Shown: positions 1,980 through 52,849, counted from the first letter of the stretch. The stretch is DNA of 64,000 nt from an uncultured candidate division Zixibacteria bacterium (GCA_963817915.1 CAWFQL010000017.1:276308-340307), one strand, 5' to 3'. A program made the numbers and translations. The notes: generated by a model from the letters alone, not told the origin.

Positions 1980-2197
1980 GTTTTTATGAATTAAATTACC
2001 TGTTAAATATAATTTGGAAAAATTGCATATTTAATTATATTGATTTCGCATGAGTTAATTGGAGATGCCGACAGGTACTGCCTGTTTAGGGCAGGATTAC
2101 GAACAAAGGCAGAAATATGCCTGTTATTGAATCGCACATAATATCATATTTAAAGTACAAATTCTATCTGATTTGAATAATTAAATTGGAGGATAAA

Positions 2198-15250: not shown

Positions 15251-15834
15251 TTGGCTCGGATCGGTATACTCGGGGGTACTTTCGATCCGCCGCATAACGG
15301 CCATATTGCATTAGCGTTCGCGGCTCTGGCTCAGCTACAACTGGATAGGATAATTTTTATTCCGGCCAATAAGCCTCCACATAAGCCGGAAACTGTAATT
15401 TCATCCGCAAATGACAGACTCAATATGCTGCGGCTGGCCATAGATTCGATAAAGGATTTTGACCTTTCCGAAATAGAATTACATCGGCCGGGGAATTCTT
15501 ATACGATTGAAACATTATCGGAGCTTAAAGCAGTTTATCCTGACGATGAGTTTTATTTTATAATAGGAGCTGATAATGTTGCCGAAATGGAAGGATGGCA
15601 TAAGCCCGAAGAGATTTTCAAATTGGCTACAATAGCGGCGGCCAACAGACCGGGCTATATGACCCAAAGGCAGGTTTGCCGATAAAGTCAAATACTTTGA
15701 GATGCCTTTAAAAGATATATCATCGACTGCGATTAGAGCGTTGGTAAGTGCCGGTAAATCGATACACGAACTTGTGCCGGACGCAGTAGAGAAATATATT
15801 TATAAGCATCACCTTTATGGAGCCAATGGATAGA
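15251..15834 (+). CDS. nadD: Nicotinate-nucleotide adenylyltransferase NadD, with an apparent -1 frameshift near 15655-15685
   Basis: [11 protein letters not shown] (HxGH) motif. The C-terminal part ([32 protein letters not shown]...YIYKHHLY) continues in frame 1 after the called stop at 15685. Confidence 0.75.
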
Positions 15835-20000: not shown

Positions 20001-20042
20001 ATTGGAACTGTCAAATAAAGTAGTTTTGTTAAAGGAGGTAGA

Positions 20043-21122: not shown

Positions 21123-21322
21123 AAATTATACTTGACAATTTTGGTATGAACAATATCTTAGACGTAATTTGAATTGACGAAAGGAAACGCTTATCGTAAT
21201 TGGCTAAAGGGTAGTTGTAGAAAAGCGAAGAGATTGTAAAAAGGCTTTACCTACATGCCCAGTGGCTAATTTTTTGTCTTTGGCCGAATGGCCGAAGATG
21301 AAATGTATTCATCGGAGGATTG

Positions 21323-24300
21323 ATGCTCTGCCGAAAAAAACTGATTTTGTTAGGACAGGCATTTTTTTCGATTAGTATCTTAATAAGCATATCTTCAGCT
21401 TCGACCATTTTTGACGGCGATGTAGAAATTTTAAAATCCGATAATTCAGGCGTAACCCTGAAATATAAAGTTCCTTCGAGTTCGTTTACGCCGTTTGAAC
21501 AGGGCAATAACAAATATCATTCTCTTAATATTGAGCGAACGGCTCAAAATCGCGTTGAAGGACAATCAATAATTCCTATAAAGATTGTGCCGTTGGCCTT
21601 GCCTCCCGGCGCCACTGCCAAAATCCAGGTGATCGACGCAAATTATAAGGATGCGGAATTTAAAAAATTGCCGCCATTTTTTGCTCGTTCTTCAAAGGAA
21701 GAATACGACAAGGCATACGAAGATGCCTCATTAAAGAGCACCGTGACGCATAGCGATCCATATATAGTATCATTCGATAATTTGAGGGGATTAAAAATTG
21801 CCAGAATTGGCATCCCTGCGATTAGGTACTCTGAAAACCCGCCAAGTTTATCGATGCTCCAGACCATCACGCTTAGAGTGGATTTTGTGGGCGGACAGTC
21901 AAATTTGCCGGTGTCATTCCAGCATCCTGGAAATGCGTTTAATAAGATTTTTTCCAAGGTGGTCGCCAACTATGATGTCGGGGCCAATTGGGTCGCCAAA
22001 GAACAGAAAATTGCTCTTGGAGCGTCAGCGACTTCAAGCGTATTCGATTCAGCATCCACATGGTTCAGAATGGAGCTTACAACAGAGGGGATTTATTCTA
22101 TCGGCTGGAATCAATTTCGATCATTAGGGATAGCTAATCCAGATGTGGATATTGATCCTTCGCGCGTGCGTGTCTTCTATGGAGGCGGCAGGGAACTACC
22201 TCCCAATAATAGTACGCCCCGTCCGGAATTTAGGGAAATCCCAATACAGTTTATCGATGCAAATGGCAATGGTGTATTCGATGGTTTGGATTTATTTGTA
22301 TTTTACGCCGACGGAGTCGATAGTTGGGAATATGATTCGACCTTGAATAATTTTATTCGGTATAAAAATCATTATACCAGCAAGAATGTATTTTGGCTCA
22401 CAATCGACGGGAATTTTTCCGGACCTGCCAAACGATATCCAAGCTGGGATGGAAATCCCAATGGGGCATATGATGTCTCTACTGATTCATACACTGCAAT
22501 GTTTAATAAAGAAGAAGATATTCTATTCTGGAAATATTCACCAATCCAACAGGATTATAATGATTATTTTGAATGGTATTGGGCTTCGGGAAAATCATTT
22601 TCAACCAGCGCGCAGTTGTATGATGTTGTTTCTGGCGGAACGGCGGAAATAATAGTCAGGCATAGGGCAGGTAATCTTTCGCTGACGGTAAACAGCTCAA
22701 GTGCAACCCCGATGCGCCAATTACCTCCTTTTTCGATATTTTCGGCATCGAATCTTAGGGACGGACTCAATAGTATCACATTACAGTCAGTTACCAATTT
22801 CTATACTGATTATATAAATATTCTTTATCCCAGATGGCTGAGGACAATTGACGGCAATTTGCGATTCTCGCAACCGGATACTTTTGGGGTTGTCCGTTAT
22901 AATCTTACCAATGTAGATTCGGATTATTTGCTTCTGGATATATCCGACAAGATGAATCCCGTTAAAATAGCAGGCGGGTCATGGAGTGGGCAGAATCTAT
23001 CATTTCTTGATACTGTATCAGCGCAATCGCATAAACAGTATTATATTTCAAACAAGAATCGATTCAAGACTCCCAGTTCGATAACGACCTATCAAATTGA
23101 TAATTTGAAAGATGTGAATTCATCAAACAACCGCGCTGATGAGATTATATTGACTTACGATGGATTCTATGATCAGGCAGTGCGCTTGGCCCAGCATCGT
23201 CAGAACGTATATGGTCTGGCCACAAGAATAGTCAAAATATCAGATGTCTATAATCAATTTTCTTACGGCCTTTTGGATGCCATTGCCATAAGGGATTTTC
23301 TGAAATATGCTTATGAAAATTGGCAATCGCCAGCGCCATCCTACGTGGTTTTGCTGGGAGATGGCAATTATGATTATAGAAATTACATGGGTTCAAGTTC
23401 TCATATTTATATACCGCCATATGAATATCTGCCTCTATTCGGCAGCGACCTCGGAATGTCGGACGAGCTTTTTGTCTATTTTGGGAGTTACGGTAATCTC
23501 GATTCGGATTCAAATTCAATTCCCGACATGATGATTGGAAGAATTTCTGCCCGATCGGTACAAGATGCTTCCGAGATGATTGATAAGATAATCGATTACG
23601 ACAGCAATCCGGATCTTGGCCCCTGGAGAAACAGGGTAGTCGTTGCTGCAGATGATAATCTTCACCCTCCGCATGATAACGATTGGAATCATACCGCGCA
23701 AGCCGAGGATCTGGCTAATCACCATGTGCCCAATAGCTTTGAAACCGGTAAGATTTATTTGATTGAATATCCAATGGGGGCAGGCGGCGAAAAACCGCAG
23801 GCAAGAGAAGCCCTTATGAGCGCATATAATCAGGGCTCATTGATCATCGATTGGATTGGACACGGGAGCGCCGGTCTTTGGGCTGACGAGCACATTTTCC
23901 GGAGAATCGAAGATATTCCACGTTTGCATAACGGCAAAAGACTTTCTCTGGTATTCACCGCCTCATGCTCGATTGGCGCATTTGATTTTCCGGCATTTGA
24001 AAGCATGGCGGAGGAATTGGCTCGCACTTATGGACGCGGGGCAATTGCGGTAATCTCGGCAACAAGAGGAGTATATGCCACATCCAATGGCCAATTCAAT
24101 AATGCAGTATTCGATCAGTTATTGAATTCAGATTCAGTTGGAATAGGCGCCGCGATGTATATAGCGAAATTTTTGAGGCAATCAGGCGATAGCGGAACTA
24201 ATACAAATGACAGAGTATATGTGCTTTTTGGAGACCCGGCGCAGCTTTTGCAATTTCCCAAGTATAAGGTGAGATTCAATTCTGTCCCGGATTCATTGGC

Positions 24301-25351
24301 CGCGCTTACCGAGAACGAGGTTTCAGGTGAAATTACCGATGTTGCCGGCAATATTATGAGCGATTTTAACGGCACTGTTTGGGTTTCCGTTAAAGATGGA
24401 GCGACCTTAAGATCTGTGGCCCTGCTCGATCGATATAATAATCCGATATCTCCACCCCAATTCATAAGCTTTATTAAATCCGGCGCCACCATTTTTCATG
24501 GCCCTACGGATGTCGTCAATGGTCATTTTACTGGCCGATTTTTTACTCCGAAAGATATTTCTTATGGCAGCGCTGATGCCAGGATATATGCTTATGGTGA
24601 AAATGGGGTTTACGATGCCGTCGGAGTAGCAGATTCCCTTAGAATTTCTGGTTCAATGCCGACCGATCAAGATTCGACCGGCCCTGTTATACATCTATTT
24701 GTTGACGGGAGGCCGTTCAGACAAGAAATAACACAGGTTCCATCGGCTTTTGTACTTACAGCGGATATTACCGATGATCACGGGGTCAATATTACCGGTC
24801 AGTTGGGTCATGGAATAGTTTTAAGTATCGACGATGGCAGAGTATTAGAAATGGATATCACCGGCAACTTTAGTTACGGTAGAGGAAATTATCAGGGCGG
24901 TGTTTTGACATTCCAAACGCCCGAACTGCCGCTTGGACAGCATACTTTGTCTTTGAAGGCCTGGGATAATTTCAATAATTCCACGCTGACTAATTCAAAT
25001 ATTGAAGTGGTTTCAACTCAAAATCTTGCTATCTCCAATGTTATGAATTATCCGAATCCTGTGAAGGGAATCGGAGTGAATACATCATTCCAATACTGCC
25101 TGAATGAAAATGTAGATAAAATTATAATCAAAATATTCACTGAAGCGGGGAGAAAGATAAAGACGTTGGAATTTACAAGTCCGGATTATACGCAGATGGA
25201 TTGTCATCAGGTTGATTGGAATCTTAGAGATGGCGATGGCGATCCTATTGCCGATGGAATTTATTTATATAAAGTTATAGCGGAAAAGCAGGATGGGAAC
25301 GGTTCCCATTCGGAAGCTGACGATACCAGAAAATTAGTAATACTGAGGTAA
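21323..25351 (+). CDS. porU: PorU-like T9SS C-terminal signal peptidase / sortase (gingipain C25 family) with its own T9SS CTD
   Basis: GGAGGA RBS and signal peptide. C25-like catalytic His (LIIDWIGHGSAG) and Cys (LVFTASCSIGAFD). ~1340 aa. C-terminus NYPNPVKGIGVNTSFQYCL...IYLYKV is a CTD. Directly upstream of a PorV-like gene. Confidence 0.7.
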   Translation: MLCRKKLILLGQAFFSISILISISSASTIFDGDVEILKSDNSGVTLKYKVPSSSFTPFEQGNNKYHSLNIERTAQNRVEGQSIIPIKIVPLALPPGATAKIQVIDANYKDAEFKKLPPFFARSSKEEYDKAYEDASLKSTVTHSDPYIVSFDNLRGLKIARIGIPAIRYSENPPSLSMLQTITLRVDFVGGQSNLPVSFQHPGNAFNKIFSKVVANYDVGANWVAKEQKIALGASATSSVFDSASTWFRMELTTEGIYSIGWNQFRSLGIANPDVDIDPSRVRVFYGGGRELPPNNSTPRPEFREIPIQFIDANGNGVFDGLDLFVFYADGVDSWEYDSTLNNFIRYKNHYTSKNVFWLTIDGNFSGPAKRYPSWDGNPNGAYDVSTDSYTAMFNKEEDILFWKYSPIQQDYNDYFEWYWASGKSFSTSAQLYDVVSGGTAEIIVRHRAGNLSLTVNSSSATPMRQLPPFSIFSASNLRDGLNSITLQSVTNFYTDYINILYPRWLRTIDGNLRFSQPDTFGVVRYNLTNVDSDYLLLDISDKMNPVKIAGGSWSGQNLSFLDTVSAQSHKQYYISNKNRFKTPSSITTYQIDNLKDVNSSNNRADEIILTYDGFYDQAVRLAQHRQNVYGLATRIVKISDVYNQFSYGLLDAIAIRDFLKYAYENWQSPAPSYVVLLGDGNYDYRNYMGSSSHIYIPPYEYLPLFGSDLGMSDELFVYFGSYGNLDSDSNSIPDMMIGRISARSVQDASEMIDKIIDYDSNPDLGPWRNRVVVAADDNLHPPHDNDWNHTAQAEDLANHHVPNSFETGKIYLIEYPMGAGGEKPQAREALMSAYNQGSLIIDWIGHGSAGLWADEHIFRRIEDIPRLHNGKRLSLVFTASCSIGAFDFPAFESMAEELARTYGRGAIAVISATRGVYATSNGQFNNAVFDQLLNSDSVGIGAAMYIAKFLRQSGDSGTNTNDRVYVLFGDPAQLLQFPKYKVRFNSVPDSLAALTENEVSGEITDVAGNIMSDFNGTVWVSVKDGATLRSVALLDRYNNPISPPQFISFIKSGATIFHGPTDVVNGHFTGRFFTPKDISYGSADARIYAYGENGVYDAVGVADSLRISGSMPTDQDSTGPVIHLFVDGRPFRQEITQVPSAFVLTADITDDHGVNITGQLGHGIVLSIDDGRVLEMDITGNFSYGRGNYQGGVLTFQTPELPLGQHTLSLKAWDNFNNSTLTNSNIEVVSTQNLAISNVMNYPNPVKGIGVNTSFQYCLNENVDKIIIKIFTEAGRKIKTLEFTSPDYTQMDCHQVDWNLRDGDGDPIADGIYLYKVIAEKQDGNGSHSEADDTRKLVILR

Positions 25352-25409
25352 GAAACTGTATGAATTTGACCGACAATAATATAGATCATCATTGTAATCG
25401 GAGGATGGA

Positions 25410-27986
25410 ATGAGGCAGTATAAATTAGTAATATTACTTTTATTGGCGATGTCAGCATTAGCCGCGGCCCAGGTTTCGCAAACTGCGGTCCAGTTCTTGT
25501 TGATAGCACCGGGGGCCAGGGCCGGAGGCATGGGAGAGACATTTATTGCGATTTCGGATGATGCCACGGCCGTACATTGGAATCCAGCGGGTCTTGGACG
25601 GTATCCGCTCACTGCTTCGTGGCTCGATTTTAACTCCGCTCCCGGCGATACAATTCAATCATTATCAATGGTTAAAAATAATTTGCCCGAAAATAATTAT
25701 CGTCAATATGATCTTTGGAGCATTATTAACGGTCACCTTACCAAATGGGACGGCGCTCACTGGGTTGCGGGCACGTTACAGCCATTGAGAGCTGGAGCTT
25801 CACTGGAATCAGTGATAATGCGCTATACCGGCTTGGGCGAAAACGAAGCGGCGCCATATATTGATAAATTGGCCAGAGCCAATAATACTATCATGCCTGA
25901 AACAATGGATTCATTGAAAACAGAAATAATGGCGGCTCTTCCTCAGGATTATTTATATAAAGAAGATCTCCAATATGGCTTTGAAAAACTCCATAAGGCA
26001 TGGCTTCAGCTTCGAATAAATGTCAAAGGATTTTCCGCAATTCGGAATGATATAAACAATGTCCTGGCTGATTCAATAGCCACCACCGATGAAATGGATA
26101 AAGTGACATTCGGTTTTGATAGAGGAATCGAAGCCAAGGGCGACAGAGAAGTCTGGCTGCCGTACGACTTGACTCTTCCGGATAAGATTAATTGCCTCAA
26201 TTCCGATGAAGAAATTCTTTATCTCGGAACCAATAATGGCTTATACAGATTCGATCCTCAAAAGAGCATCTGGTCATTTTTTACGGTCGCCAAAGATTCG
26301 CTGCCATCGGATAATATCACGGCGATTGAAAAAGGCTCCAAGAAAATGATGTATATAGGCACGTCAAATGGGCTGGTGAAATTCACCGGCAGGAATATTA
26401 CCAAATTCCCGCCCAATTCCGATGTGCCTACAGGTCAGATTGACGCTATTGCCGCGTCAAGCGATCGTGATGCCTGGCTGGCATCGGATGGCATCCTTTA
26501 TCACTATGACGGCGCCAAATGGAGCCAATTCAAGGAAAAAGAATTATCGATCGGGGAGAGCATTCCCAAAGTTGTCGAGAAATTTTATGGTGAAATAGGC
26601 ACTGTCATGTATGATACAGTTATGAGCATGGTAACTGCCTACAATTCAACAAAGGGAGATACAACTCAAACCGGGAAGCCGATAAAATTGCCGTATAATC
26701 TCGGATACAGAGGAAAGATAACAGCTCTCGGTGTCGATGAAAGATACCGTCTCTGGATCGGTACTACTTACGGAGTAAGTCTTTTCACCGGCGATGATTT
26801 CAAGCTATTTGGATACAAGATATATCAGGCGCCGGAGTCCACTTCAGTGCAGTCAGTTGCCGCTCAATATATAACCGATCGTGATCCTCAAAAGATCGAG
26901 CTGCTTTCATCGAAGATAAGGCAGTTTAACGGGCTTGAGTCCGATCAGATCAATTCCGGCAAAAAGCTTTTGGTTTATTCCAATTCACTGGGATCGGAAA
27001 TAAAAGCTATCAGACCAATTACCGGAAAAAAAGTTGCGGTCGCTACATCGTACGGCGCGGTCGAATATGATAATGGCAAATGGAGTCGAATTCAGAATCT
27101 GGATATTGCCAGGTCTAATGTCTCCAATATATATGCCAAGTCTGGCGATATGTGGTTTGCATCTCCTAAAAAAGTCTCGGTCTATGCCGCAGCCAAAAAA
27201 CAGGTGACATTCATGCATTCCAATTATCTGGTGCAGCTTGCCAGCGATCTTTATTACGATTTCTTTTCGATCGTATATCCAACAGCCGATTGGGGGACAT
27301 TTGGTTTCGGAGTTCATTTCATTTCATATGGAGAGCAACTGCGCACAAATGAAAACAATTTGCCCGAAGGCTCGTTTACTTCTTATGATATAGCGTTTAC
27401 AGTATCATACGGCACGAATCTAATGAACAACCTCTATGGAGGACTTTCAGTTCGCTATATAAATTCGCATCTTTCAGTGGTAGGCGCCGGTGCTGAAAGA
27501 GGTAAAGGTGTAGGGTATTCGCTGGCAGTTGATGCCGGCGTGATCTATGATATGACCCGCCGACTCACTCTGGCCGCGACCGTAACCAACCTCGGCCCCG
27601 ATATAGCCTATATCGATGCTGATCAGGCGGACCCGTTACCAAGAAAATTGGCGCTCGGTTTTGCCTATAAACTTATCGATTCGCCATTTAATAAATTGAC
27701 AGTTTTGGGCGAAGCCACAAAACTATTGGTTGATTTGAATCACAGTGTCAAGACGGAGATTGAAGAGATTATTCCGCATATCGGAATCGAGTACTGGTAT
27801 TCGAATTATGTGGCTTTAAGAGCGGGATATGTCTACGACAAAATCGGCGTGCAAAAATACTTTACTTTGGGCACGTCGCTGCAATACAGCAGTTATCGAT
27901 TTGATTTCTCTTATATTCCAGCGTCGAGCGAGGAGACTAATAGGTTGGCCAATACTATGCGTTTTTCCATGAATGTGGGGTTCTAA
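25410..27986 (+). CDS. porV: PorV(LptO)/PorQ-like FadL-type outer-membrane beta-barrel carrying a large inserted Reg_prop-type beta-propeller domain
   Basis: Signal peptide, then the PorV-family N-terminal motif QTAVQFLLIAPGARAGGMGETFIAISDDATAVHWNPAGLG. About 500 aa follow with repeats of the form (L/M)(Y/W)IGT..GL..F (EILYLGTNNGLYRFDP, MYIGTSNGLVKFTG, LWIGTTYGVSLFTG, and so on). The C-terminal ~280 aa is a beta-barrel ending ...MRFSMNVGF. Confidence 0.55.
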   Translation: MRQYKLVILLLLAMSALAAAQVSQTAVQFLLIAPGARAGGMGETFIAISDDATAVHWNPAGLGRYPLTASWLDFNSAPGDTIQSLSMVKNNLPENNYRQYDLWSIINGHLTKWDGAHWVAGTLQPLRAGASLESVIMRYTGLGENEAAPYIDKLARANNTIMPETMDSLKTEIMAALPQDYLYKEDLQYGFEKLHKAWLQLRINVKGFSAIRNDINNVLADSIATTDEMDKVTFGFDRGIEAKGDREVWLPYDLTLPDKINCLNSDEEILYLGTNNGLYRFDPQKSIWSFFTVAKDSLPSDNITAIEKGSKKMMYIGTSNGLVKFTGRNITKFPPNSDVPTGQIDAIAASSDRDAWLASDGILYHYDGAKWSQFKEKELSIGESIPKVVEKFYGEIGTVMYDTVMSMVTAYNSTKGDTTQTGKPIKLPYNLGYRGKITALGVDERYRLWIGTTYGVSLFTGDDFKLFGYKIYQAPESTSVQSVAAQYITDRDPQKIELLSSKIRQFNGLESDQINSGKKLLVYSNSLGSEIKAIRPITGKKVAVATSYGAVEYDNGKWSRIQNLDIARSNVSNIYAKSGDMWFASPKKVSVYAAAKKQVTFMHSNYLVQLASDLYYDFFSIVYPTADWGTFGFGVHFISYGEQLRTNENNLPEGSFTSYDIAFTVSYGTNLMNNLYGGLSVRYINSHLSVVGAGAERGKGVGYSLAVDAGVIYDMTRRLTLAATVTNLGPDIAYIDADQADPLPRKLALGFAYKLIDSPFNKLTVLGEATKLLVDLNHSVKTEIEEIIPHIGIEYWYSNYVALRAGYVYDKIGVQKYFTLGTSLQYSSYRFDFSYIPASSEETNRLANTMRFSMNVGF

Positions 27987-27990
27987 GATA

Positions 27991-30900
27991 GTGAATTTAT
28001 CGAAACGCACTTTAATAATTGCTATTGGCATACTATTTTTGGTCTCGGCCCACTTTTCATTTGCCCAAAAGATTCTCAAGCCGCTTTCATTGAGATCAAT
28101 TCCCAGAGAAAGTACGGTTAAGAGTGACGAATTCCGATCCGGCGTATCCGAAAAGAATTTGCTGGGATTGGAGCGGCCGTCGCTTTATGCATTGCCGACT
28201 GCGAAACACGGTATGCCATTAACTGCCGCGAGCATTATGTCTGATTCGATCAGGGTATTGGTTTTGAAGGTTGAATTTCAGAAAGAAATACCGGATGATC
28301 CATACACGACCGGCGATGGCACATTCGATCTTAGAACATATGATCAATTTGTAGCCGCGGAAGGACATTATATCGATCCCGCGCCTCATAATACATCATA
28401 TTTCAATGCTCACATGCAAGCTTTGCACAATTATTGGTATTATGTTTCCGAAAAGCAGCTGCAGATTCAATGGGATGTATATCCTCAACCAGAAAGCGTT
28501 TCGATTCAATTGCCGGTGCCAATGGCCTATTACGGATCGAATATGAATTGGGAAAGTATCGGCGACAGACTCGGTAATTTTCTGATCCGCGCAATTACAC
28601 TTGCCGATTCATTATATCCTGAGATCGATTTCGGCCGTTACCAGGCGGTCATTGTTTTCCATGCTGGTTCGGATCAACAAAATAATCTTTCCTATTTCCC
28701 TCAATTCGATACGCCATACGATTTCTATACAGGGTTCCTAAAGCTCAGCAAGCCAGTTATGGTGGATGATAGCACAGTTGCTATTCAGGAGGGGACGATA
28801 CTCCCGGAATTTGCAAGTCAGGATAACCGTATTACCGCCCTAAATGGTGTAGTAGCCCATGAATTTGGACATCAATTAGGACTCGTAGACCTATACAAAA
28901 CCGACAATTTCTTTACGCAGGTTGGCGATTTTTCGCTGATGGACAACAATGGAATGTCGGTCGGTGTCCAATTCCCTGATATAGGGCCGACAGTCGGCGG
29001 TACGATGCCTGTTTACCCCGATGCCTGGTCGAGGGCTTATCTTGGATTCGATATACCTCGTGAAATTACCGATGGGAATAATGTGCCAATTTCAGCGGCC
29101 GCTCAAAATCATGGAAGTACAGAGATAATCAAAGTGCCAATTACCGAATACGAATATTTCCTGATTGAAAATAGACAGCAGGACGCCGACACATTGGATC
29201 CATCCAACCCATTTGCTGATATTTTAGTTGGCGATCCGGCTACAGGAGTGATTTTAGGCCCGGGGTTTGCATATTTTCAGGGAAACGATACAATTTTGGT
29301 TTCCGATGGCGAATACGATCGGATTACTCCCGGCAATGGTGCCGTAATATGGCACGTCGATGAAGCAGTCGCTTATCAGGATACTCTCCACAATGGCGAT
29401 AATAACTTTTTTAATAATACACTGCAATGGGACCCCGCCAGGAGATTTCTGTCATTGGTAGAAGCTGATGGCGTAATCGATTTCGGAGGGTATTACTACC
29501 GGGGTTATGGCGATGATAATGATTATTTTAAGGGACCGAATAGGGTATCATTTACGCCCAGCACTAATCCATCATCGAATTCCATTCTGGGATGCGATTC
29601 TCATATTTCTGTTACGGATATTTCCAATTCGGATACTTTGATGTATGTTGATATAAATATCGATTGGCTGATGGCCGGATGGCCCCAAATGGGATTGCCC
29701 AATCAAATGTCCGATCCGATAATAGCCGATCTTCTGTCGAATGATACTTCGGAAGTTTTGATTACGGCGTCCAATAGATTGCTTATCTGGAAGCCAAATG
29801 GACAAAAATTTATTTCCAATGGCGATTCCGTAGGAATCTTGAGATACGATAGCAGTATCGCAATCTATCCCTGGGCTATTGCCGCCGAATGCGATAGTAC
29901 GATTTCGACCAGGCCCGTGATTTTCGATTATAATGGCGACGGCGAAAATGATATCGCGTTGACTTCGAATTCGGGACGATTGTACGCGTTTAATCCTCGT
30001 GATAACAACTCCGATGGCCGACTCGATCCGATTGTCGGTTTCCCTCTGGATCTGCATTTAAATACGCGGTTGGCTCCGATAACAGTGAATTTCCTACCAG
30101 GCGCTGAGAACGAGCTCATCGCATTCGATGATTCCGGCAAGGTGCATATGGTTTATAATGTCCTGGAAGACAGTGTCGTGTACAATTTTAACGGGATAGT
30201 AATTTCTGCCGCCGCGTATCAGGTTGCCGGGAAAAACGTAATCGACGCTTTGGTCAGTCAGCCAGGCGGAACGAGCCTGAATCGAATCGCGGCCGATTCC
30301 GGGACTGCGGTTTTCGCGCAGGAATTTTCGCCGGTAGCATTTCCATTTTATCATTATGTTCCCTCTATACCGGTTTCTATAATTGCAGTCGATATAGACA
30401 GGGATGGAAATTTGCCCGAAATCCTGATTACATTTTCCTACAAAATAGAGCTTATAAAAAATGACGGTTCAGTCGCGTGGTCTATCGATACTGATCGTGA
30501 GCTTTATCATACCGCAATTGGCGATATTAATTCCGATGGTTATCCTGAAATCGTGATAGGCGCCGAATCGGCAATATACGCATTTAATTATACAGGCTCT
30601 TTAATGCAGAATTTCCCCATCGATATGAACAAGTATAAACTCGGTGGAGCGATAATATCGTCGCCGATATTGGGGGATATTGATAACAATGCAGCACCGG
30701 AAATTATAGTCGGTTTGCCGGGCGGCGGCATTTACGCATTTGATCAATACTCTGACCGTGTCGCAGGATTCCCATTGCCGAGTTCATTTGGAGTCAGTAA
30801 CTCGGCGGCGTTAGGCGATTTAAATAATGATGGGGAAATTGACCTGGTCACGGAGGAAAATTCGGGATTTGTCAAGGCCTGGAATTTATCAGCGCCATAC

Positions 30901-31278
30901 GAATTCGCGAATGTTCCCTGGGGCATGGCAGGCGGCAATATCTTCAATAATTCTTATCTTTCGACAGTCTATCAAAAAAATATTGCGGCGACCGATCAGC
31001 AGTTGCCGGTGAATTCCGTATTCAATTATCCCAATCCCGCGACCAACAGTACAACCATCCGTTTTTACCTGAACAGCAATTCGAATGTGAAGATAGAGAT
31101 GTTTGATTTGATGGGCGACAGGATTCACGACGCAACCATTGCCGGGCAGGCGCACGCGGATAACGAGTATGTTTGGAATTGCCAAAATGTAGCTTCAGGA
31201 GTATACTATTGTCGTGTTGAAGCCGCGAATAATACGGGAAAAACATCGAGAATGATTAAAATTGCCATCGCCAAGTAG
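27991..31278 (+). CDS. Secreted M6 (immune inhibitor A-like) zinc metallopeptidase with FG-GAP/VCBS repeats and T9SS C-terminal sorting domain
   Basis: Signal peptide; HEFGHQLGLVDLY zincin motif; at least five FG-GAP-like repeats (FDYNGDGENDIALT, VDIDRDGNLPEILI, IGDINSDGYPEIVIG, LGDIDNNAAPEIIVG, LGDLNNDGEIDLVTE). C-terminus VFNYPNPATNSTTIRFYL...VYYCRV is a CTD. Confidence 0.7.
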   Translation: MNLSKRTLIIAIGILFLVSAHFSFAQKILKPLSLRSIPRESTVKSDEFRSGVSEKNLLGLERPSLYALPTAKHGMPLTAASIMSDSIRVLVLKVEFQKEIPDDPYTTGDGTFDLRTYDQFVAAEGHYIDPAPHNTSYFNAHMQALHNYWYYVSEKQLQIQWDVYPQPESVSIQLPVPMAYYGSNMNWESIGDRLGNFLIRAITLADSLYPEIDFGRYQAVIVFHAGSDQQNNLSYFPQFDTPYDFYTGFLKLSKPVMVDDSTVAIQEGTILPEFASQDNRITALNGVVAHEFGHQLGLVDLYKTDNFFTQVGDFSLMDNNGMSVGVQFPDIGPTVGGTMPVYPDAWSRAYLGFDIPREITDGNNVPISAAAQNHGSTEIIKVPITEYEYFLIENRQQDADTLDPSNPFADILVGDPATGVILGPGFAYFQGNDTILVSDGEYDRITPGNGAVIWHVDEAVAYQDTLHNGDNNFFNNTLQWDPARRFLSLVEADGVIDFGGYYYRGYGDDNDYFKGPNRVSFTPSTNPSSNSILGCDSHISVTDISNSDTLMYVDINIDWLMAGWPQMGLPNQMSDPIIADLLSNDTSEVLITASNRLLIWKPNGQKFISNGDSVGILRYDSSIAIYPWAIAAECDSTISTRPVIFDYNGDGENDIALTSNSGRLYAFNPRDNNSDGRLDPIVGFPLDLHLNTRLAPITVNFLPGAENELIAFDDSGKVHMVYNVLEDSVVYNFNGIVISAAAYQVAGKNVIDALVSQPGGTSLNRIAADSGTAVFAQEFSPVAFPFYHYVPSIPVSIIAVDIDRDGNLPEILITFSYKIELIKNDGSVAWSIDTDRELYHTAIGDINSDGYPEIVIGAESAIYAFNYTGSLMQNFPIDMNKYKLGGAIISSPILGDIDNNAAPEIIVGLPGGGIYAFDQYSDRVAGFPLPSSFGVSNSAALGDLNNDGEIDLVTEENSGFVKAWNLSAPYEFANVPWGMAGGNIFNNSYLSTVYQKNIAATDQQLPVNSVFNYPNPATNSTTIRFYLNSNSNVKIEMFDLMGDRIHDATIAGQAHADNEYVWNCQNVASGVYYCRVEAANNTGKTSRMIKIAIAK

Positions 31279-31307
31279 ATGTTATATTTAAAATATCGGA
31301 GGATTAA

Positions 31308-32144
31308 ATGAAGAAAAGCATTCCAATTATAATTATGATAGGTGTCATATTGTGTCTTGCGGCTGAATCCTTTGCGGGTGGAATAACTAAAACTACATCT
31401 GCTAAAGAACTATTTTTGCAGAATGGATTAACATTGGAAAAGTATTTCAGCCGAAAATTATATTTAGCCAAAAAAGATGATTTAACAAATACTGATGTTT
31501 ACGAGTATGGTACCAAATCGCCTATGAAGGCCTTCGGCCTATCGTTGTTGGTGCCGGGTGCTGGTCAATATTATGTGGAGGCATCGAGGATAAAAACCGG
31601 CGTATTTTTGGGCGCCGATATTCTTCTATGGTCCGGATATCTCGTTTATCATCATAAAGGCGCCAACGGGGAAAAGGATTATCGGAGTTTCGCTGACCAG
31701 CATTATCTCTGGCAGACCTATGATCAATGGTGGTGGTCGCTGCCAGAGCCTACAAGAAACCACTATTCCCATTCTTTGCCGTGGGATCAAACTTTGAATC
31801 AGCCGATTAGAAATCGAGAGTATTATGAAAATATCGGGAAGTATGATCAGTTCCAGGTCGGCTGGGATGATGTTGGATTAAACAATCCTCCCGATTCGAC
31901 AAATAGCGTTACTTATGGCAATAGATTGCTTTATCTTAATATGCGCAAGAAGGCCAACGATTATTTTTCAAATGCCACGACCATGGCCATGATTTCTATT
32001 GCCAACCATATTATCTCGGCATTTGATGCCGCAATTGGCGCCAAGAAATTCAACAGAGGCGGCAAGCAATATTCAATGGCTCTAAAAGCCAAGAGATATA
32101 ACGGCAAAACAATACCATATCTTTCATTGGCGATGAAGTTTTAG
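31308..32144 (+). CDS. Hypothetical exported/membrane protein, paralog A (shared A-F-G-L-S-L-L-V-P-G-A-G-Q-Y-Y-V motif; ends ...AMKF)
   Basis: Signal peptide; the motif FGLSLLVPGAGQYYVE is followed by a hydrophobic helix; C-terminal Phe. Confidence 0.4.
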   Translation: MKKSIPIIIMIGVILCLAAESFAGGITKTTSAKELFLQNGLTLEKYFSRKLYLAKKDDLTNTDVYEYGTKSPMKAFGLSLLVPGAGQYYVEASRIKTGVFLGADILLWSGYLVYHHKGANGEKDYRSFADQHYLWQTYDQWWWSLPEPTRNHYSHSLPWDQTLNQPIRNREYYENIGKYDQFQVGWDDVGLNNPPDSTNSVTYGNRLLYLNMRKKANDYFSNATTMAMISIANHIISAFDAAIGAKKFNRGGKQYSMALKAKRYNGKTIPYLSLAMKF

Positions 32145-32153
32145 GTGGGAGAA

Positions 32154-32900
32154 ATGGCCAGGATAGTATCAATCATTCTCATATTGACGATATCGCTATC
32201 AGGCAGCGGTTTCGCTCAGACTATTTCTCAGAAGGTAATGTCATCGATACAAAAGCCGAACGACGATGATGGTCTTAATGAGCCAACTTACGCCCCTGAT
32301 AAAGCAAATGCCGATAAGTCTAAATATAAGGCGTTGGGCCTTTCGATTTTATTACCAGGCGCGGGACAATATTATGTTGGCAGCAAAAAGAAGATGGTGA
32401 TATTTGCCTCGGCGGAAGCCCTGATATGGTCCGGTTTTTTTGGATTCAGGATGTACGGATCATGGAAAAAGGAAGACTACAAAGCCTGGGCTGCATTTCA
32501 CGCTGGCGCCGATATTAACGGCAAATCTGATCGTTTCTTCGAAAAAATGACATACTATGATAATGTTAATGAATTTAATCAGCTTGAGCTTCTTTACGAA
32601 GGTACCAACGCCCAGCCATTTCCATCCAATTCATCATATTACTGGAATTGGGATTTCAAATCTTCGAAAGATCATTATCGAAACCTGCGGAATCTCAGCA
32701 AGACGGCATATCGTCGATCGCTATTATTTATAGGGGCGGCAATTGCCAATAGAATTCTTTCCGGAATCGATGCTTATAGAGCGGCGAATGCCTATAATAG
32801 CGGCAAAGAATTCAGTGAAAAAGGGTGGCAGATATACAGCTCATCCGATAGCCCATTGGGGGCTGGTGGATTTGAAATTGGTCTTGCCCTCAAGTTTTAA
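32154..32900 (+). CDS. Hypothetical exported/membrane protein, paralog B (same PGAGQYYV motif; ends ...LALKF)
   Basis: LGLSILLPGAGQYYVGSKKKMVIFASAEALIWSGFF parallels paralog A. Tandem duplication. Confidence 0.4.
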   Translation: MARIVSIILILTISLSGSGFAQTISQKVMSSIQKPNDDDGLNEPTYAPDKANADKSKYKALGLSILLPGAGQYYVGSKKKMVIFASAEALIWSGFFGFRMYGSWKKEDYKAWAAFHAGADINGKSDRFFEKMTYYDNVNEFNQLELLYEGTNAQPFPSNSSYYWNWDFKSSKDHYRNLRNLSKTAYRRSLLFIGAAIANRILSGIDAYRAANAYNSGKEFSEKGWQIYSSSDSPLGAGGFEIGLALKF

Positions 32901-32904
32901 ATTG

Positions 32905-33846
32905 ACTGCGGCTTTTTTCTGCCTTTTATGGCTGAATTGCGCGTCGACCAGCAAAGCGCCTGCGCAATTAGAAAATACAATCTCAGGCCCTATAATAAAT
33001 CTCCGCCTCGCAAATTCCATAGGCCCCTTTATCGATGAAAATAACTCATTTACTGAGCCCGCGGGAATAACATTCAACGCTTTAGGCGAAATTTATGTCT
33101 CAGACAGGCTGAGCAATTCGATATATAAATTCTCACCTGAACTAAGGCTGTTGGCTCGGGAGGGCGGTGTTGGAATGTCTTCCGGCGGTTTCAATAAACC
33201 ATTGGGGATCGCCTGCGATGCGGCACTAAATCTCTATGTCGCCGATAATGGCAATCGGCAAATTCAGATTCTCGACCGCGATCTTCATTTTGTTAATACT
33301 ATAAGTTCTTACTATAATGACAAAGGCGAGTCTATCAATTTCGATTTACCATCGGATATTTCAATAGACAGGGAAGGCAATCTCTGGATCGCCGACAACG
33401 ACAAGATATTAGAAATAAACCCATTCTATAATTTGACGCTCGAAATATCAAATAGAGTGCCCGGTGGAGTATTTATTGGAAAGTCATCATCGGCTGAAGT
33501 ATCCTCTCAAAATATGGTTGCTGTAGGCGACCCGGATAACGGCGATGTTCTGTTGTTATCAATATACGGCAATCTCACGAAGAGGATTGCAGCCGGTAAT
33601 GCTTATGCGGTTGCCTGGGACAATTATGGAGAAATTTGGGTAGCTGACCCTGAATCCAATCGAATCTCGGCTTATGATAAAAATGGAAGGGTCTTATTTA
33701 TTTTTTCTGATACTGAGCGAGGATCCAGTCCGGCTTGGATTGCATTTGATTCTAACGGCAGATTGGGGGTAGCTGATAAGGGGCTTCGCAAAATACGTAT
33801 TTACGATATTATCCGCGGTACAAAGCAGCCTGACCTCCCCAAATAG
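32905..33846 (+). CDS. NHL-repeat (six-bladed beta-propeller) lipoprotein
   Basis: TTG start, signal peptide with lipobox LWLNC. Repeated NHL-like units (PAGITFNALGEIYVSD, PLGIACDAALNLYVADNGN.QIQILD, DISIDREGNLWIADN, AWDNYGEIWVADPESNRISAYD, IAFDSNGRLGVADKG). Confidence 0.65.
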   Translation, partial: TAAFFCLLWLNCASTSKAPAQLENTISGPIINLRLANSIGPFIDENNSFTEPAGITFNALGEIYVSDRLSNSIYKFSPELRLLAREGGVGMSSGGFNKPLGIACDAALNLYVADNGNRQIQILDRDLHFVNTISSYYNDKGESINFDLPSDISIDREGNLWIADNDKILEINPFYNLTLEISNRVPGGVFIGKSSSAEVSSQNMVAVGDPDNGDVLLLSIYGNLTKRIAAGNAYAVAWDNYGEIWVADPESNRISAYDKNGRVLFIFSDTERGSSPAWIAFDSNGRLGVADKGLRKIRIYDIIRGTKQPDLPK

Positions 33847-33852
33847 CTTTTA

Positions 33853-36800
33853 ATGAATAAATGGCCAGTCATATTATTTTCAATTCTACTTTCATCTAAC
33901 ATCTTCGCCCAAATTCCGGATACAAGCGTCATAATCCATGGCAAGGGTTCACGAGGCCCATATCAGATCGGTTTCAAGAACCTTATAAGTGGCTCCTCGA
34001 AGATAATAAGGGATAATATCGAGCTCTCTCCCGATAGCTTTTCAGTTATATATGAGGATGGCCTGATAAATCTTTCCAGACCATTAAATATCGAAGATTC
34101 TATAATCGTATTTTTCAAATATTTGCCTCTTAATCTTGAATCGACCTACTATCTCCATCGCCCCGTCGAAGCAGGTGAAGCTCCCTCAGAAAATTATCAA
34201 TCCGAAGTTAAAACCAGCGCGAGTGCAGGTAATGATCTCTCAATCGTGGGAAGCAAAGGTTTTTCGATTGAAACCGGCGGAGGAAACGGGCTTTCACAAT
34301 CGTTGAATTTGACAATCAAAGGAAATCTACTGCCGGGCTTAAAGACGTCGGCGCACATATCTGATAAATCTCAAGGCAATTCTTCCGTCACTCGAAAATT
34401 AAATGAATTGGATAGAATTTATATCGAAGCAGAGTCGGATCACTTTAAGGGAATATTCGGCGATTTTGATTATATCCATTCCGGTTCCAATTTCATGAAT
34501 TTCCAACGAAAATTATCCGGGTTGAATATGAAATATTCCAAAGCGAATACCAATCTCGGCGCGGCCGCCGCATTTTTCCCTGGAGACTATTCTTCAATCG
34601 CAATCAATGGTCGCGATGGCCGTCTCGGCCCATACTATCTAACCGATATTGGAGGGCGTCAGGGGGCGCAGGTCTTGCCTGGCTCGGAACGAGTATATCT
34701 TGATGGCGTTCTTCAAAAGCGAGGTAATGAAAACGACTATGAGATTGATTATGAGGCCGGCAGCATTCAATTTGCGCCTTCAAAGGTGCTGCGGAATGAG
34801 AGCCGGATTGTCGTAGATTATGAAATTGCCCGCGAAGAATATAATCGTTCATTCTACACAATCTCCGGCGGATCGTCGCCTATCGGAAGCTTAAAAATCA
34901 CTGCAGATCTGGTTCAGGAGGGTGATAATAAAAATTCGCCAAAGAGCTTTGAGATGACGTCTGATAATCTTCAGATTTTGCAAGATGCCGGGGCAGAAAG
35001 GCTGAATGCCGCAAGAAGCGGTGTGCAATTTGTAGGGACGGGATTAGGAAATTACACTCTTGCCACCGATACCCTGGGCAATCCTTTTTACATTTATGCC
35101 GGCCCTAATCGAGGCGATTATAATGTCAGTTTTTCGTTTATAAGTACGAATGGAGGTTCATATAAATTTCTCGGCACCGGTATTTATCAATATGGTGGCA
35201 AACTTGCGGGCGACTACGAGCCGATTATTCTTATTCCTCTTCCACAAACAAAGCGGTATGCCTCGGTTGGTTCGTCATGGTCATCGGCCGACAGCAATTT
35301 AACAATCGAAGCCGAACTTGCGGGCTCAATGTTCGATAGAAACAGCTTGTCGGATAAGGATGCCTTGAATAAGGGTGTTTCGTCATTCGTAGCGGCGAAT
35401 TATCGGAAAAAGCTTTACTCCGATGATGGTTCGCTTATGGTAAACGCCAAGGCAAGAAATATTGGCGGAAGTTCGATTTTCCCCGGGAGAATAGACGATG
35501 TCGAGCGATATCGAATTTATGATATCGATCCAAATTCATCCGCGAATGGCGAGAAAGTTCAGGAAATTGGAATCGTAAATTCATTTAATCGCACAAACAA
35601 AATCCAATATCTTATAGGTCATTTAAGCCGCCCATTGATCAGCGACAGGGTTCATCATTTGGGAGAGGCAAATTGGAATCTGTTCGATATGCTCGATCTT
35701 TATGGGCGAATAGAAAAAACTTCAGGCAGCAGGGATTGGTGGAAGCGTGGTGGCGCAATGACAGCCAACTTCGCCCGCCTTCAGCCTTCATTTCGAATAG
35801 ATTATGAAAGACAAAATGGAGCCGGCGGTTTTAAATTCAATGAATTGACAGGGATAATTCCGGCCACGTATCTGCAATCAGTAACGGGCAGCACTGAAAT
35901 CGTTTACAGAATAGAGCAAGCATTAGATAATCAAATCAATATCTGGAAGCCGAAATTCAAGTCGGGCTCATTCAGCCAGCAGATAAGTTTTTTGCCGGGG
36001 AAGGCGGGATTTTCAGGCGACTTATCCGGAGTATATTACAAAAAACACTATTCCGATTTTTCCGGGAGTAATGTCGAACAAAAAACAGGCTGGGGCAGGC
36101 TATCATTCAGCGACCCTCAAAGCAGGGGGAGTTTCAGCGTCAATGAACGATTGAGCTCATCCAACGAACGACTGCAAGCGCAAAACTATATCTTATGTGG
36201 GACAGGGCAAAGGGGAATATCGCTTTGAAGACGGTGAATATATTAAGGATCAGCAAGGAGACTATGTTCTCATTATAGAAGAATTAGGCGAAGGCTCGAA
36301 AATCAGCGATATTTCTACCGAGCTTAACGCGTCGATCGCGCCATTTTTGCTGGCGGGAGCTGGACAATCCTCCCGGAGCTCGATAGGAAAATTAAATATA
36401 GAAACCGATCTTTCTTACAGGCAGAAAAAATCATCCGATATCCTTGAGTGGCGCGATTTCTATCCATGGAGAACAACCACTCTCCAAAATATTGTCTATC
36501 GAAATGGTCAGCTGAATTTTAGAATATATTATTACCCGCCTTTTGAAAGACAACGATTCAAATACTCCGGTTCAAGATCATTTGAGGCCGGAAGTCCTTT
36601 TGCCAATGAAACTACAAACGGCAATTCTCGATCGGACGAAATTTCATGGGCATTTCCGGCGAGCGCGAAGATCGATATTATTGTCAATGGATCATTGTCA
36701 TCAAGACAAAATTCTACGAATCTTTCCGTCTATTCCATTGATAGCCGGCTGGTTTCCATGTCTGCTGATTATCGTTTCGCAGATGGCTGGACTGTAAATT

Positions 36801-37135
36801 TAAAACCTTCATACGAAACGGCCAAGCAAAAGACTACCTCCGTTAAGTCGCAAATACCATCGATGGGATTGGGATTGGTTTGGAATCTAAAGAATCGGGG
36901 ACAGGTATCCACGGTCCTCGAATATTCCCAAATTACTTCATCTCCCAAGGGCTCATATATCCCATTTCAACTGGCTCAGGGCAAAAACGAAGGTAATAAT
37001 TATCTGGCAACCGTCTCGGCCAGAATGGAAATCACCAAAAACGGGCGACTTGATTTCAGCTACAGATACGAGAATTTTCCCAAAAGGCCGCTTCGCCAAA
37101 TTATGCGGCTGGAGTTTACGGCGTTATTCAGATGA
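33853..37135 (+). CDS. Large (~1090 aa) beta-rich outer-membrane protein of unknown function; two ORFs (33853..36228 and 36197..37135) joined by an apparent +1 frameshift near 36205
   Basis: Cleavable signal peptide (NIFAQ). The sequence reads through ...ERLQAQNYIL / YVGQGKGEYRFEDGEY if one base is removed. The C-terminal region has alternating aromatic/hydrophobic beta-strand patterns (LDFSYRYENF...RLEFTALF). Confidence 0.45.
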
Positions 37136-37186
37136 AAAGATCTTCTCACAATTATTTCGGCTATCTATTTTCTAACGTCTATTAGT

Positions 37187-38797
37187 ATGGCCAAATCGGG
37201 ATTTGAGATTGCGGGCAATAAGCTATATTCGAAAACCGAACTTGCCAGACTGTTAAATTACTCCGTGGGGAACGATTCGATTTTAGCTCAATTAAGATCG
37301 CTTTATGGTCAAGCAGGATATTTCTCGGCTGATTTTAGGTGGCAGAGCGAAAACAATGGAATCAAAACCCTGCATTTTTCCGAAGGAAGCCCGACATTGA
37401 TCGGGAATTTGGATGTGCGATTAATACCAGAGAACAGCGAAATCAATTTTGAGGATATAATCAGGCAAGTGACTGGTGAAATTGCCTCGAAGAACTTCTT
37501 GAATTCCTTTTCCGCGGAATGCATCTCCCGCCTCGCTGATATCGGGATGCCATTTGCTCAAGGCACCTGGAGAGATTTTTCATTCGATGAATCCGGGCGA
37601 CTTTCGGCTGTATTTGAAATACTGCCCGGGCCGGTGATTTTTATATCGGGCTTCGAGTTTGATGGTATTTCGAGAACTCGCCATCCGACCTTGGAAAGAG
37701 CTGCTGATATTAAAATAGGACAGCGATATTCCGAATCTATTGTGGTTCGATCGCAGGATGAATTGGATAAAATGCCGTTTATTGAAATTTCGTCACCGTT
37801 TATTCTGCAGCAGTCATCTGCCGGTGATTCTTGTAAGATCATATATCATCTGAAAGAACTCCCATCGACGAAATTTGACTTTTCATTGGGATTTCTAAAT
37901 CAAGATAGAAAGGCGCAGGTGGCTGGCAGATTATTGCTCGATTTCGGCGATATTATGGGGTCGGGCAAAAGCGCGGGGCTTTTCTGGGAGAAAAAGGATA
38001 AATTTTCGAGCCAATTAAGAATCAGATATCATGACCCATTTGTATTGGGCACCAGATTCGGCTTAAGCCTCGAAGCATTTCAAAATGATCATGATAGCCT
38101 TTTTCTTGAAACAGGTGGATCTGCAGGTATTGGCCATAATTTCTCAGGCGGGCTCTACGCCGAGGCTCAATTAACAGTTCAAAGGACAGAACCCGAACCA
38201 GGGAGCATAGTTTCGTCGTCAAGCAGTAATAAAATAACGGCCGTATTTGGATATTCGAATTTGGATTTTAAGGATAATCCATCGGCGGGGTATGAAGCAT
38301 TGACATCACTGAGCAATAAATACCGATCGAATGGCAGGGTAGTTTTAGGCAATCCGGCTACCCATTTAACTTCGGTCGAACTTAAGGGAAACTATTACTT
38401 GAGAATTATTGGTCGACTGGTACTCGAGTTGGGGCTAAACGGCTGGGGAATCGTGAATAATGACGGTGATATTTCAGCGGATGAGCTTCGTTATATAGGC
38501 GGCTCCGATGATTTACGAGGATATTCATTCCAACGTTTTCCCGCGTACCGATATTTTATTACCACATTCGAATCCAGATTATTATCGGGTCGTGCCGGAA
38601 GAGCCTATATCTTTATGGATATTGCCACCATAAAATCCTCGCCGAATTCTGGCTCGAGATATAAAATATATCCCGGATATGGAATAGGAATCGCGGCCCC
38701 AACCACATTGGGACAGGTCAAGGTGGAAGTAGGTTGGGGGAAAAGCGGATTCCCGAAAGAGGCGATAGTGAATTTCGGATTGGCCGGAGGATTTTGA
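37187..38797 (+). CDS. Omp85-family (BamA/TamA/TpsB-like) outer-membrane protein with N-terminal POTRA-like domain
   Basis: POTRA-like IAGNKLYSKTELARLL...GYFSADF; conserved loop-6 motif YIGGSDDLRGY; ends ...VNFGLAGGF. No signal peptide in the called ORF. An ATG at 37132 overlaps the upstream stop (ATGA) and encodes MKRSSHNYFGYLFS in another frame, so the true start may be 37132 with one more indel. Confidence 0.55.
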   Translation: MAKSGFEIAGNKLYSKTELARLLNYSVGNDSILAQLRSLYGQAGYFSADFRWQSENNGIKTLHFSEGSPTLIGNLDVRLIPENSEINFEDIIRQVTGEIASKNFLNSFSAECISRLADIGMPFAQGTWRDFSFDESGRLSAVFEILPGPVIFISGFEFDGISRTRHPTLERAADIKIGQRYSESIVVRSQDELDKMPFIEISSPFILQQSSAGDSCKIIYHLKELPSTKFDFSLGFLNQDRKAQVAGRLLLDFGDIMGSGKSAGLFWEKKDKFSSQLRIRYHDPFVLGTRFGLSLEAFQNDHDSLFLETGGSAGIGHNFSGGLYAEAQLTVQRTEPEPGSIVSSSSSNKITAVFGYSNLDFKDNPSAGYEALTSLSNKYRSNGRVVLGNPATHLTSVELKGNYYLRIIGRLVLELGLNGWGIVNNDGDISADELRYIGGSDDLRGYSFQRFPAYRYFITTFESRLLSGRAGRAYIFMDIATIKSSPNSGSRYKIYPGYGIGIAAPTTLGQVKVEVGWGKSGFPKEAIVNFGLAGGF

Positions 38798-40813: not shown

Positions 40814-40814
40814 A

Positions 40815-41696: not shown

Positions 41697-41700
41697 TATC

Positions 41701-52844: not shown

Positions 52845-52849
52845 TCGAT

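Follow-up and report, generated by a model that had tools for sequence, protein, structure and literature searches.

A PorV-family protein with a large propeller-containing insert in a conserved PorU-PorV-M6-like gene order of candidate division Zixibacteria

A stretch of 64,000 nucleotides from an uncultured candidate division Zixibacteria bacterium (GCA_963817915.1 CAWFQL010000017.1:276308-340307, hereafter the window) carries at positions 21323-31278 three large co-directional open reading frames (ORFs), all on the + strand, that encode a homolog of PorU, the C25-family sortase of type IX secretion systems (T9SS), an outer-membrane protein of the PorV family, and an M6-like metalloprotease ending in a T9SS C-terminal sorting domain (CTD). 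The PorV is about twice the normal size because a module of 534 residues has been inserted into it, and the order PorU > insert-bearing PorV > M6-like protein > two DUF5683-like paralogs is invariant in the Zixibacterial loci assessed. We consider it likely that the block is the outer-membrane sorting part of a Zixibacterial type IX secretion pathway and forms one operon conserved across the phylum. The PorV is best described as an undescribed variant within a known system; our literature searches found no work on T9SS in Zixibacteria or on an insert-bearing PorV. An initial annotation of the window, made from the sequence alone, was broadly right and of an ordinary kind; the insert-bearing PorV and the invariant gene order are the addition. 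The features of the block, in window positions, are the following.

21132..21159, + strand: promoter-like site TTGACA-16-TATCTT within the 198-bp gap 5' of porU, a consensus match only
21305-21322, 25395-25409 and 31293-31307, + strand: Shine-Dalgarno-like TCGGAGGAT before porU, porV and the downstream gene D1
21323..25351, + strand: porU, C25-family T9SS sortase of 1342 aa, with signal peptide, Propeptide_C25-like region (residues ~32-219), catalytic domain and C-terminal Ig/CTD
23861..23968, + strand: predicted PorU catalytic dyad, His847 (codon 23861-23863) and Cys882 (codon 23966-23968), by alignment
25410..27986, + strand: porV with insert, PorV-family outer-membrane protein of 858 aa (NF033709, split match)
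25470..25598, + strand: N-terminal plug or hatch of PorV, residues 21-63, ending in NPAGLG and aligning to residues 6-64 of Flavobacterium johnsoniae PorV
25599..27200, + strand: inserted module of 534 residues (64-597), an approximately seven-bladed Reg_prop β-propeller with a helical bundle (132-239), from alignment and model
26529..26693, + strand: LysM-derived β-α-α-β unit 1, residues 374-428, degenerate, from the DSSP pattern
26805..26981, + strand: LysM-derived unit 2, residues 466-524, degenerate, from the DSSP pattern
27201..27983, + strand: 14-strand FadL/PorV-type β-barrel, residues 598-858, with C-terminal Phe, from the structure model and structure matches
27973..31278, + strand: M6-like zinc metalloprotease of 1101 aa with FG-GAP repeats and a type A CTD (NF052323, TIGR03296, FG-GAP_3)
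28858..28890, + strand: zinc/catalytic motif HEFGHQLGLVD (HEXXHXXGXXD), residues 296-306, from homolog conservation
31027..31260, + strand: type A T9SS sorting domain of the M6-like protein, residues 1019-1096 (TIGR04183, PF18962)

The second gene scores 235 bits against the PorV/PorQ family model NF033709 (cutoff 90), and PorV models match its product in two pieces, residues 8-63 and 591-858. The protein falls under the cutoffs of the equivalog NF033710 (175.8 bits, cutoff 250) and of PorQ (85.9 bits, cutoff 220), and its 858 residues compare with ~370-400 for the known compact, single-domain PorVs. In an AlphaFold2 model built on 48 homologs (pLDDT 84.7, pTM 0.79) all 14 barrel strands follow the insert, and successive strands are joined by short turns (2-4 residues) and longer loops in alternation. 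The barrel matches PorV 8gl6_F in Foldseek (E 8e-18, TMt 0.61) as well as PorV 6h3i_F, and the model thus shows the gene to encode a predicted 14-strand barrel of the PorV type. Within the plug, the 48 homologs share 20 invariant columns at residues 29-67, 17 of them inside 21-63, and the NPAGLG motif is invariant. The initial description of a "PorV-like gene" is therefore accurate for the barrel; it does not convey that this is no ordinary PorV, the insert more than doubling its size.

The insert lies between the plug and strand 1, where it replaces the 7-residue linker (residues 64-72) of F. johnsoniae PorV 6h3i_F. It matches Reg_prop PF07494 (29.3 bits, cutoff 20.4), as do 45 of the 48 homologs, and its better structural matches are the periplasmic sensor propellers of Bacteroides hybrid two-component systems (HTCS): 3ott is recovered by phmmer at 2.3e-11, and 3ott and 4a2l by Foldseek at E ~1e-10, with PorZ 5m11 a poorer match (E 1.2e-8). 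Both sequence and fold place the insert in the propeller repeat family of the HTCS proteins BT4673 (3OTT/3VA6) and BT4663 (4A2L), the latter of which binds glycans in the periplasm, and of PorZ (5M11), which binds an anionic lipopolysaccharide glycan. Unlike these, the insert has a single propeller rather than two, lacks a kinase or CTD, and has its propeller interrupted by the helical bundle and two LysM-derived units, all inside an outer-membrane barrel protein. An identification of the insert as PorZ was considered and rejected, there being no NF052228 match on PorV and only a weak PF21544 match in 2 of the 48 homologs. In a subclade of PorV homologs of ~1,047 aa (P0072-P0074, L056-L069) the insert is longer, its N-terminal β/helical-bundle part being apparently duplicated, and one homolog of 806 aa (P0079) is without the helical bundle. 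A candidate for a stand-alone insert (P0082) was dismissed as a mere fragment, since it comes from a contig full of errors where every gene of the cluster is broken.

The two degenerate units are traced to LysM through homologs. The segment aligned to unit 1 is a full LysM domain in homolog P0068 (42.6 bits, cutoff 20.9), and that aligned to unit 2 matches LysM in homolog P0078 (25.5 bits, same cutoff). In the window protein itself, residues 476-522 of unit 2 give a weak match to YneA (LysM), and LysM PF01476 gives no match at E <= 0.01.

The side of the membrane on which the insert lies can be approached through F. johnsoniae PorV, whose loops have been assigned by experiment: Asn87 and Phe115, located in extracellular loops, hydrogen-bond the cargo CTD, and a loop on the periplasmic side is made up of residues 193-199 (PMC10994853). 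By phmmer alignment, Asn87 corresponds to S612 of the window protein, in the S1-S2 loop, Phe115 to Y640 at the top of strand 3, and residues 193-199 to 714-716 in the S6-S7 turn. This correspondence implies that strand 1 runs outward from the periplasm, and the insert, lying ahead of it, would be on the periplasmic face. That face of PorV is already a functional surface in known systems, since SkpA contacts it, forcing PorV off the translocon needs an energy input (PMC10994853), and PorU/V/Q/Z attachment complexes have been placed on the PorKN ring (PMC12365241).

The insert is not peculiar to one genome. About 80 full-length PorV homologs are known, of 855-880 aa and in some cases ~1,047 aa, with identities down to 30%, and all that carry a taxonomic name are from candidate division Zixibacteria. 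A genome scan by full-length PorV alignment, with one genome per species, found a relative in 365 species genomes; the best 80 of the 365, among them the founding RBG-1 genome, cover nearly the whole query including the insert, save three contig-truncated loci. An exhaustive HMMER search with the insert only gave 83 representatives at E <= 1e-30, of which ~50 carry the whole insert from residue ~68-72 of a protein of 850-1,050 aa; the remainder are ordinary Reg_prop proteins. Even among sequences as little as 24% identical the insert retains its full length, and 25 of its positions are invariant. From this distribution the insert architecture is a phylum-level trait; databases label the proteins simply "PorV/PorQ family protein".

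Gene order was assessed by tblastn of the window proteins against 83 Zixibacterial loci (82 distinct), counting for each gene only those loci in which the contig reaches far enough.

PorU, upstream of PorV: 77/77 assessable loci
M6-like protein, directly downstream of PorV: 78/78
D1, after the M6-like protein: 58/58
D2, after D1: 55/55
NHL propeller protein, after D2: 45/55
Giant barrel of ~1,100 aa, after the NHL propeller: 47/54

The order is unrearranged even where protein identities drop to ~31-35%. In one locus (L086; ERZ25039527 contig_126424) the whole porU-porV-M6 cluster is apparently fragmented, as is usual where indel errors are left uncorrected in a long-read assembly. The co-directional block of sortase, PorV and protease reported initially is present, with all three ORFs on the + strand at the positions given; the genes are real, while the conserved unit consists of at least five genes, and usually seven, rather than three.

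Within the window these genes are tightly packed, with intergenic gaps in the block of <=60 nt (58 nt between porU and porV), and the porV and M6-like genes share 14 nt, from the ATG of the latter to the stop of the former. The common Shine-Dalgarno-like motif TCGGAGGAT, 5-8 nt 5' of the ATG of porU, porV and D1, is together with the overlap and the short gaps a sign of an operon. A scan of 20000-39900 for promoters and terminators gave counts close to those expected from shuffled sequence; the one noteworthy site is that 5' of porU, scoring 10/12 as the joint-best and first-listed sigma-70-like match; the same scan found no terminator-like sites in any intergenic gap of the block.

The E-values behind the predicted porU, porV and M6-like identities are far beyond chance. 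PorU scores 687.6 bits against the T9SS_sortase model NF033707 (cutoff 420), covering model positions 4-1095 of 1095, and matches Peptidase_C25 (PF01364) with E 4.6e-86; its start is the ATG used in the public gene call. It aligns to Porphyromonas gingivalis PorU (6za2, E 8.5e-70) and to gingipain R (1cvr). His847 of a GHGS motif and Cys882 of SCSIG align to His211/Cys244 of RgpB and to the GHG and TATC motifs of PorU 6za2, and both are invariant in 65 of 65 PorU relatives. These alignments show porU to encode a C25 sortase with an intact predicted His/Cys dyad. The alignment to 6za2 extends to window residue 1326 (chain residue 1143) and thus through the C-terminal domain, for which there is no separate TIGR04183 match and a FlgD_ig score of 23.3 bits, under the cutoff of 27. 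The identification of a C25-family PorU with its catalytic residues and a CTD of its own is in this way confirmed. Residues 1-244 (21323-22050) form an N-terminal extension of ~240 residues outside the PorU model, with a weak Propeptide_C25 match (24.5 bits), that may be a gingipain-like prodomain.

The third protein was initially taken for an InhA-like M6 protease of about 1100 aa carrying the motif HEFGHQLGL, FG-GAP repeats and a CTD. Those three elements stand: FG-GAP_3 scores 46.6 bits, and the CTD is matched by TIGR04183 (40.9 bits, cutoff 23) and PF18962 Por_Secre_tail (40.1 bits, cutoff 27). The family assignment needs weakening, as PF05547 (20.9 bits, cutoff 22) and TIGR03296 (77.3 bits, cutoff 110.8) are both missed, and so is the nearest curated family, NF052323 (364 bits over residues 87-562, cutoff 600). 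For this reason "M6-like" is the proper label. Shared with immune inhibitor A and peptidase M6 are HEXXHXXGXXD and partial matches to PF05547 and TIGR03296, to which the window protein adds FG-GAP repeats and a T9SS CTD. Of 120 database homologs 119 keep HEXXH, and all 67 of the 67 homologs from the loci have HEXXHXXGXXD; this intact, invariant motif suggests that the protein is presumably an active zinc protease. It had also been counted as one of three secreted cargo proteins. It does have a CTD, and its constant position directly 3' of PorV in 78 of 78 loci speaks against an incidental cargo.

The other two of these proteins lie at the left edge of the window.

1..1926, + strand: C1 (papain-family) cysteine peptidase with type A CTD (PF00112 1.8e-49; TIGR04183 49.4 bits)
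2186..4957 or 2198..4957, + strand: WD40-like propeller protein with type A CTD (WD40 4.6e-09; TIGR04183 37.9 bits)

The frame of the C1 peptidase is open from base 1, its N-terminus being cut by the window edge, and the CGSCW, NHAV and NSWG motifs are present; its initial identification as a CTD-bearing C1 peptidase agrees with the profiles. For the second protein the CTD was recovered and the label "PD40/CARDB" was not, since at E <= 0.01 Pfam gives WD40-type repeats and neither PD40 nor CARDB. The C-terminal segments of the M6-like, C1 and WD40-like proteins match TIGR04183 as anticipated (40.9, 49.4 and 37.9 bits, cutoff 23). With a PorU equivalog, a PorV-family barrel and no fewer than four type A CTD proteins present, a T9SS-type sorting pathway is very likely.

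Compared with the PorU-PorV pair of Bacteroidota (6ZA2; 6H3I/8GL6), the window has the same adjacent, co-directional porU and porV, the same C25 His/Cys sortase with a C-terminal domain, a 14-strand FadL-type barrel with an N-terminal NPA plug, and type A CTD substrates. It differs in its PorV, of 858 aa with a 534-residue propeller/helical/LysM-derived insert against ~390-400 aa with a 7-residue linker, in the extra ~240-residue N-terminal region of PorU, and in its host, a Zixibacterium and not a member of Bacteroidota. Similar in composition is the set described by the NCBIfam models NF052324 (PorU2), NF052325 (PorV2) and NF052323 (T9SS-dependent M6-like inactivated metalloprotease, M6i), which likewise combines a sortase-like protein, a barrel and an M6-like CTD protein. 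The window sortase is a true PorU equivalog, with 688 bits against 136 on PorU2, all window scores on the PorU2/PorV2/M6i models are under cutoff, and the window HEXXHXXGXXD is intact and invariant. Judging from their names and consecutive accessions alone, the genes of that set would be syntenic, which suggests that a trio of sortase, carrier and M6 protein recurs in paralogous form.

Downstream of the three genes, the conserved neighborhood continues as follows.

31308..32144, + strand: D1, DUF5683-like secreted or membrane-associated protein of 278 aa (weak PF18935, 22 bits, below cutoff)
32145..32900, + strand: D2, paralog of D1, ~250 aa; ATG 32154 is the more likely start
32866..33846, + strand: NHL-repeat β-propeller protein (PF01436 1.4e-19; uncertain start, 32866-32902)
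33853..37135, + strand: giant outer-membrane β-barrel, ~1,091 aa in relatives, frameshift-split here
37187..38797, + strand: Omp85/POTRA protein of 536 aa (PF01103, PF07244; weak BamA match)

D1 and D2, both weakly DUF5683-like, are paralogs by hhalign (probability 100%, E 5e-44). The NHL propeller protein, whose N-terminus reads ...FFCLLWLNC, is probably a lipoprotein; its apparent fusion to the giant barrel in L070, L073 and L076 was rejected because one stop codon lies between the genes. The giant barrel gene has a frameshift near 36190-36230 that yields ORFs of 791 and 312 aa, and the public record has the same 791-aa product; the gene is intact (~1,091 aa) in ~40 other genomes, and the frameshift here reflects an assembly error or else a genuine pseudogene. 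The AlphaFold2 model of a homolog (pLDDT 84.8) has ~40 long strands, its top four Foldseek matches in the PDB are SprA at TM-scores of only 0.13-0.26, and 21 of 33 family members match TIGR04189, far under cutoff, through a β-sandwich motif of ~50 residues. The resemblance to SprA/Sov thus consists of a very large barrel (~40 predicted strands), the top structural matches and the TIGR04189 motif; SprA is, unlike it, a capped barrel of 36 strands and ~2,300 aa, against ~1,091 aa and a score under the TIGR04189 cutoff. The giant barrel is possibly a relative of SprA, not SprA itself. Its homologs in Rhodothermaceae and Cloacimonadota do not adjoin T9SS genes or porU/porV. The Omp85/POTRA gene comes after the giant barrel in the closer relatives.

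Elsewhere the window holds, among others, genes for LptD, FtsK and Pol I, a Bat operon, and genes for RND efflux and BshC. The LptD homolog (5099-8041, 980 aa) has OstA/LptA-like N-terminal repeats and lies between the left-edge CTD proteins and ftsK. DNA polymerase I is present as two genes (15817-18514), one for the 5'-3' exonuclease (331 aa) and one for the 3'-5' exonuclease plus polymerase (556 aa). A UbiA prenyltransferase ORF of 162 aa (38939-39427) covers profile positions 32-178 of 250 and may be truncated or have a miscalled start. The Bat-type aerotolerance operon (39794-47201) comprises a MoxR ATPase, DUF58, a 338-aa ORF, two BatA/VWA proteins, a TPR protein and BatD, and an RND efflux operon (OEP, HlyD-type adaptor, RND permease) is followed by a homolog of BshC, of bacillithiol biosynthesis (50386-57285).

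If the block is the outer-membrane sorting part of a T9SS, the CTD proteins (the M6-like protein, C1 peptidase, WD40 protein and PorU) would be exported by Sec across the inner membrane and pass the outer membrane via a translocon. The extracellular loops of PorV would bind the CTD, and PorU, held on PorV, would cleave it. The insert would hang from the periplasmic face of PorV, anchoring or positioning it against the cell wall or against T9SS parts in the periplasm. Bacteroidota have distinct proteins that touch the periplasmic face of PorV (SkpA/SprE, PorG-PorKN) or link the system to the wall (PorE). PorE of P. gingivalis is a periplasmic T9SS lipoprotein with TPR, a β-propeller and a peptidoglycan-binding OmpA_C domain; it resembles the insert in combining a periplasmic propeller with a module of peptidoglycan-binding type and differs in being a separate lipoprotein with OmpA_C in place of LysM; the likeness lies in the architecture. 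The M6-like protease may be an obligatory, co-translated partner instead of an incidental cargo, serving as a dedicated protease for processing at the surface or in a structural role like that of PorZ. We infer from sequence both the function of the insert as a wall anchor or periplasmic handle and the roles of the M6-like protein and of D1/D2.

Several observations weigh against this interpretation. The genes porK/L/M/N, canonical sprA, porZ and porQ were not found within the 64-kb window, and the M6-like protein is under every curated M6 cutoff. Wall binding is uncertain for this PorV because both of its LysM-like units miss Pfam significance, and the placement of the insert relative to the barrel follows from alignment and outer-membrane-protein topology rules, not from geometry. 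All related genomes are metagenome-assembled, and synteny that is invariant within one phylum could reflect an inherited operon rather than a physical partnership. An alternative is to read the block as an ordinary PorU-PorV pair with an unrelated cargo protease, the insert being a lineage-specific decoration without a role in secretion and the order merely inherited. Known families do explain each of the three genes independently, the relatives all belong to one phylum and so are not phylogenetically independent, and the giant-barrel homologs of Rhodothermaceae and Cloacimonadota are unlinked to porU/porV. Yet the order holds to 31-35% identity with zero exceptions in 78 loci and includes a stop/start overlap, the insert is full length with 25 invariant positions down to 24% identity, and the consecutive NCBI accessions for PorU2, PorV2 and an M6-like protein suggest that the three-way association recurs; we judge this reading unlikely.

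Very unlikely, in our estimate, is a surface-exposed, PorZ-like insert, by which the protein would amount to a fusion of PorV/PorQ with PorZ that presents a glycolipid anchor to PorU outside the cell. The Foldseek match to PorZ 5m11 (E 1.2e-8), the PF21544 PorZ_N_b_propeller matches in 2 of 48 homologs, the lack of a separate porZ or porQ in the cluster, and the fact that in P. gingivalis a PorV-like barrel holds PorZ would all fit. Against it, the insert precedes strand 1 and the S1-S2 loop aligns to the extracellular, CTD-contacting loop, which puts both ends of the insert at the periplasmic rim; periplasmic sensor propellers are the better structural matches, the NF052228 PorZ model matches neither the insert nor the rest of PorV, and LysM domains in diderms are typically periplasmic. 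A separate, non-canonical PorU/PorV-like system dedicated to the M6-like protein, after the manner of PorU2/PorV2/M6i and with the giant barrel as its own small translocon, would accommodate NF052323 as the best family match of the M6-like protein (364 bits), the co-encoded ~40-strand barrel with its SprA-like motif (47 of 54 loci) and the absence of core T9SS genes from the window. The equivalog-level PorU score and the intact protease motif distinguish the window from that set, and we give such a system hardly any credence.

A bolder form of the preferred reading, the sorting part of a T9SS encoded by one phylum-wide operon, seems unlikely as a whole. Zixibacteria would then have a compact T9SS in which a 60-kDa periplasmic propeller/LysM handle ties PorV to the wall or to the energy chain, replacing SkpA-SprE, PorG-PorKN and PorE, and in which the M6-like protein, the DUF5683-like pair and a half-size SprA-like barrel are integral parts.

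Should the insert prove a passive decoration, the finding reduces to routine annotation. To our knowledge, hardly any work exists on T9SS outside Bacteroidota. As the carrier, PorV draws cargo out of the T9SS translocon, a step that needs periplasmic energy, and its periplasmic face touches parts of the machine (PMC10994853, PMC12365241). The invariant PorU-PorV-M6 order, together with the NCBI naming of PorU2, PorV2 and an M6-like protein, suggests an unrecognised third partner of sortase and carrier. An insert present across a whole phylum is a natural fusion that could reveal the periplasmic contacts of PorV.

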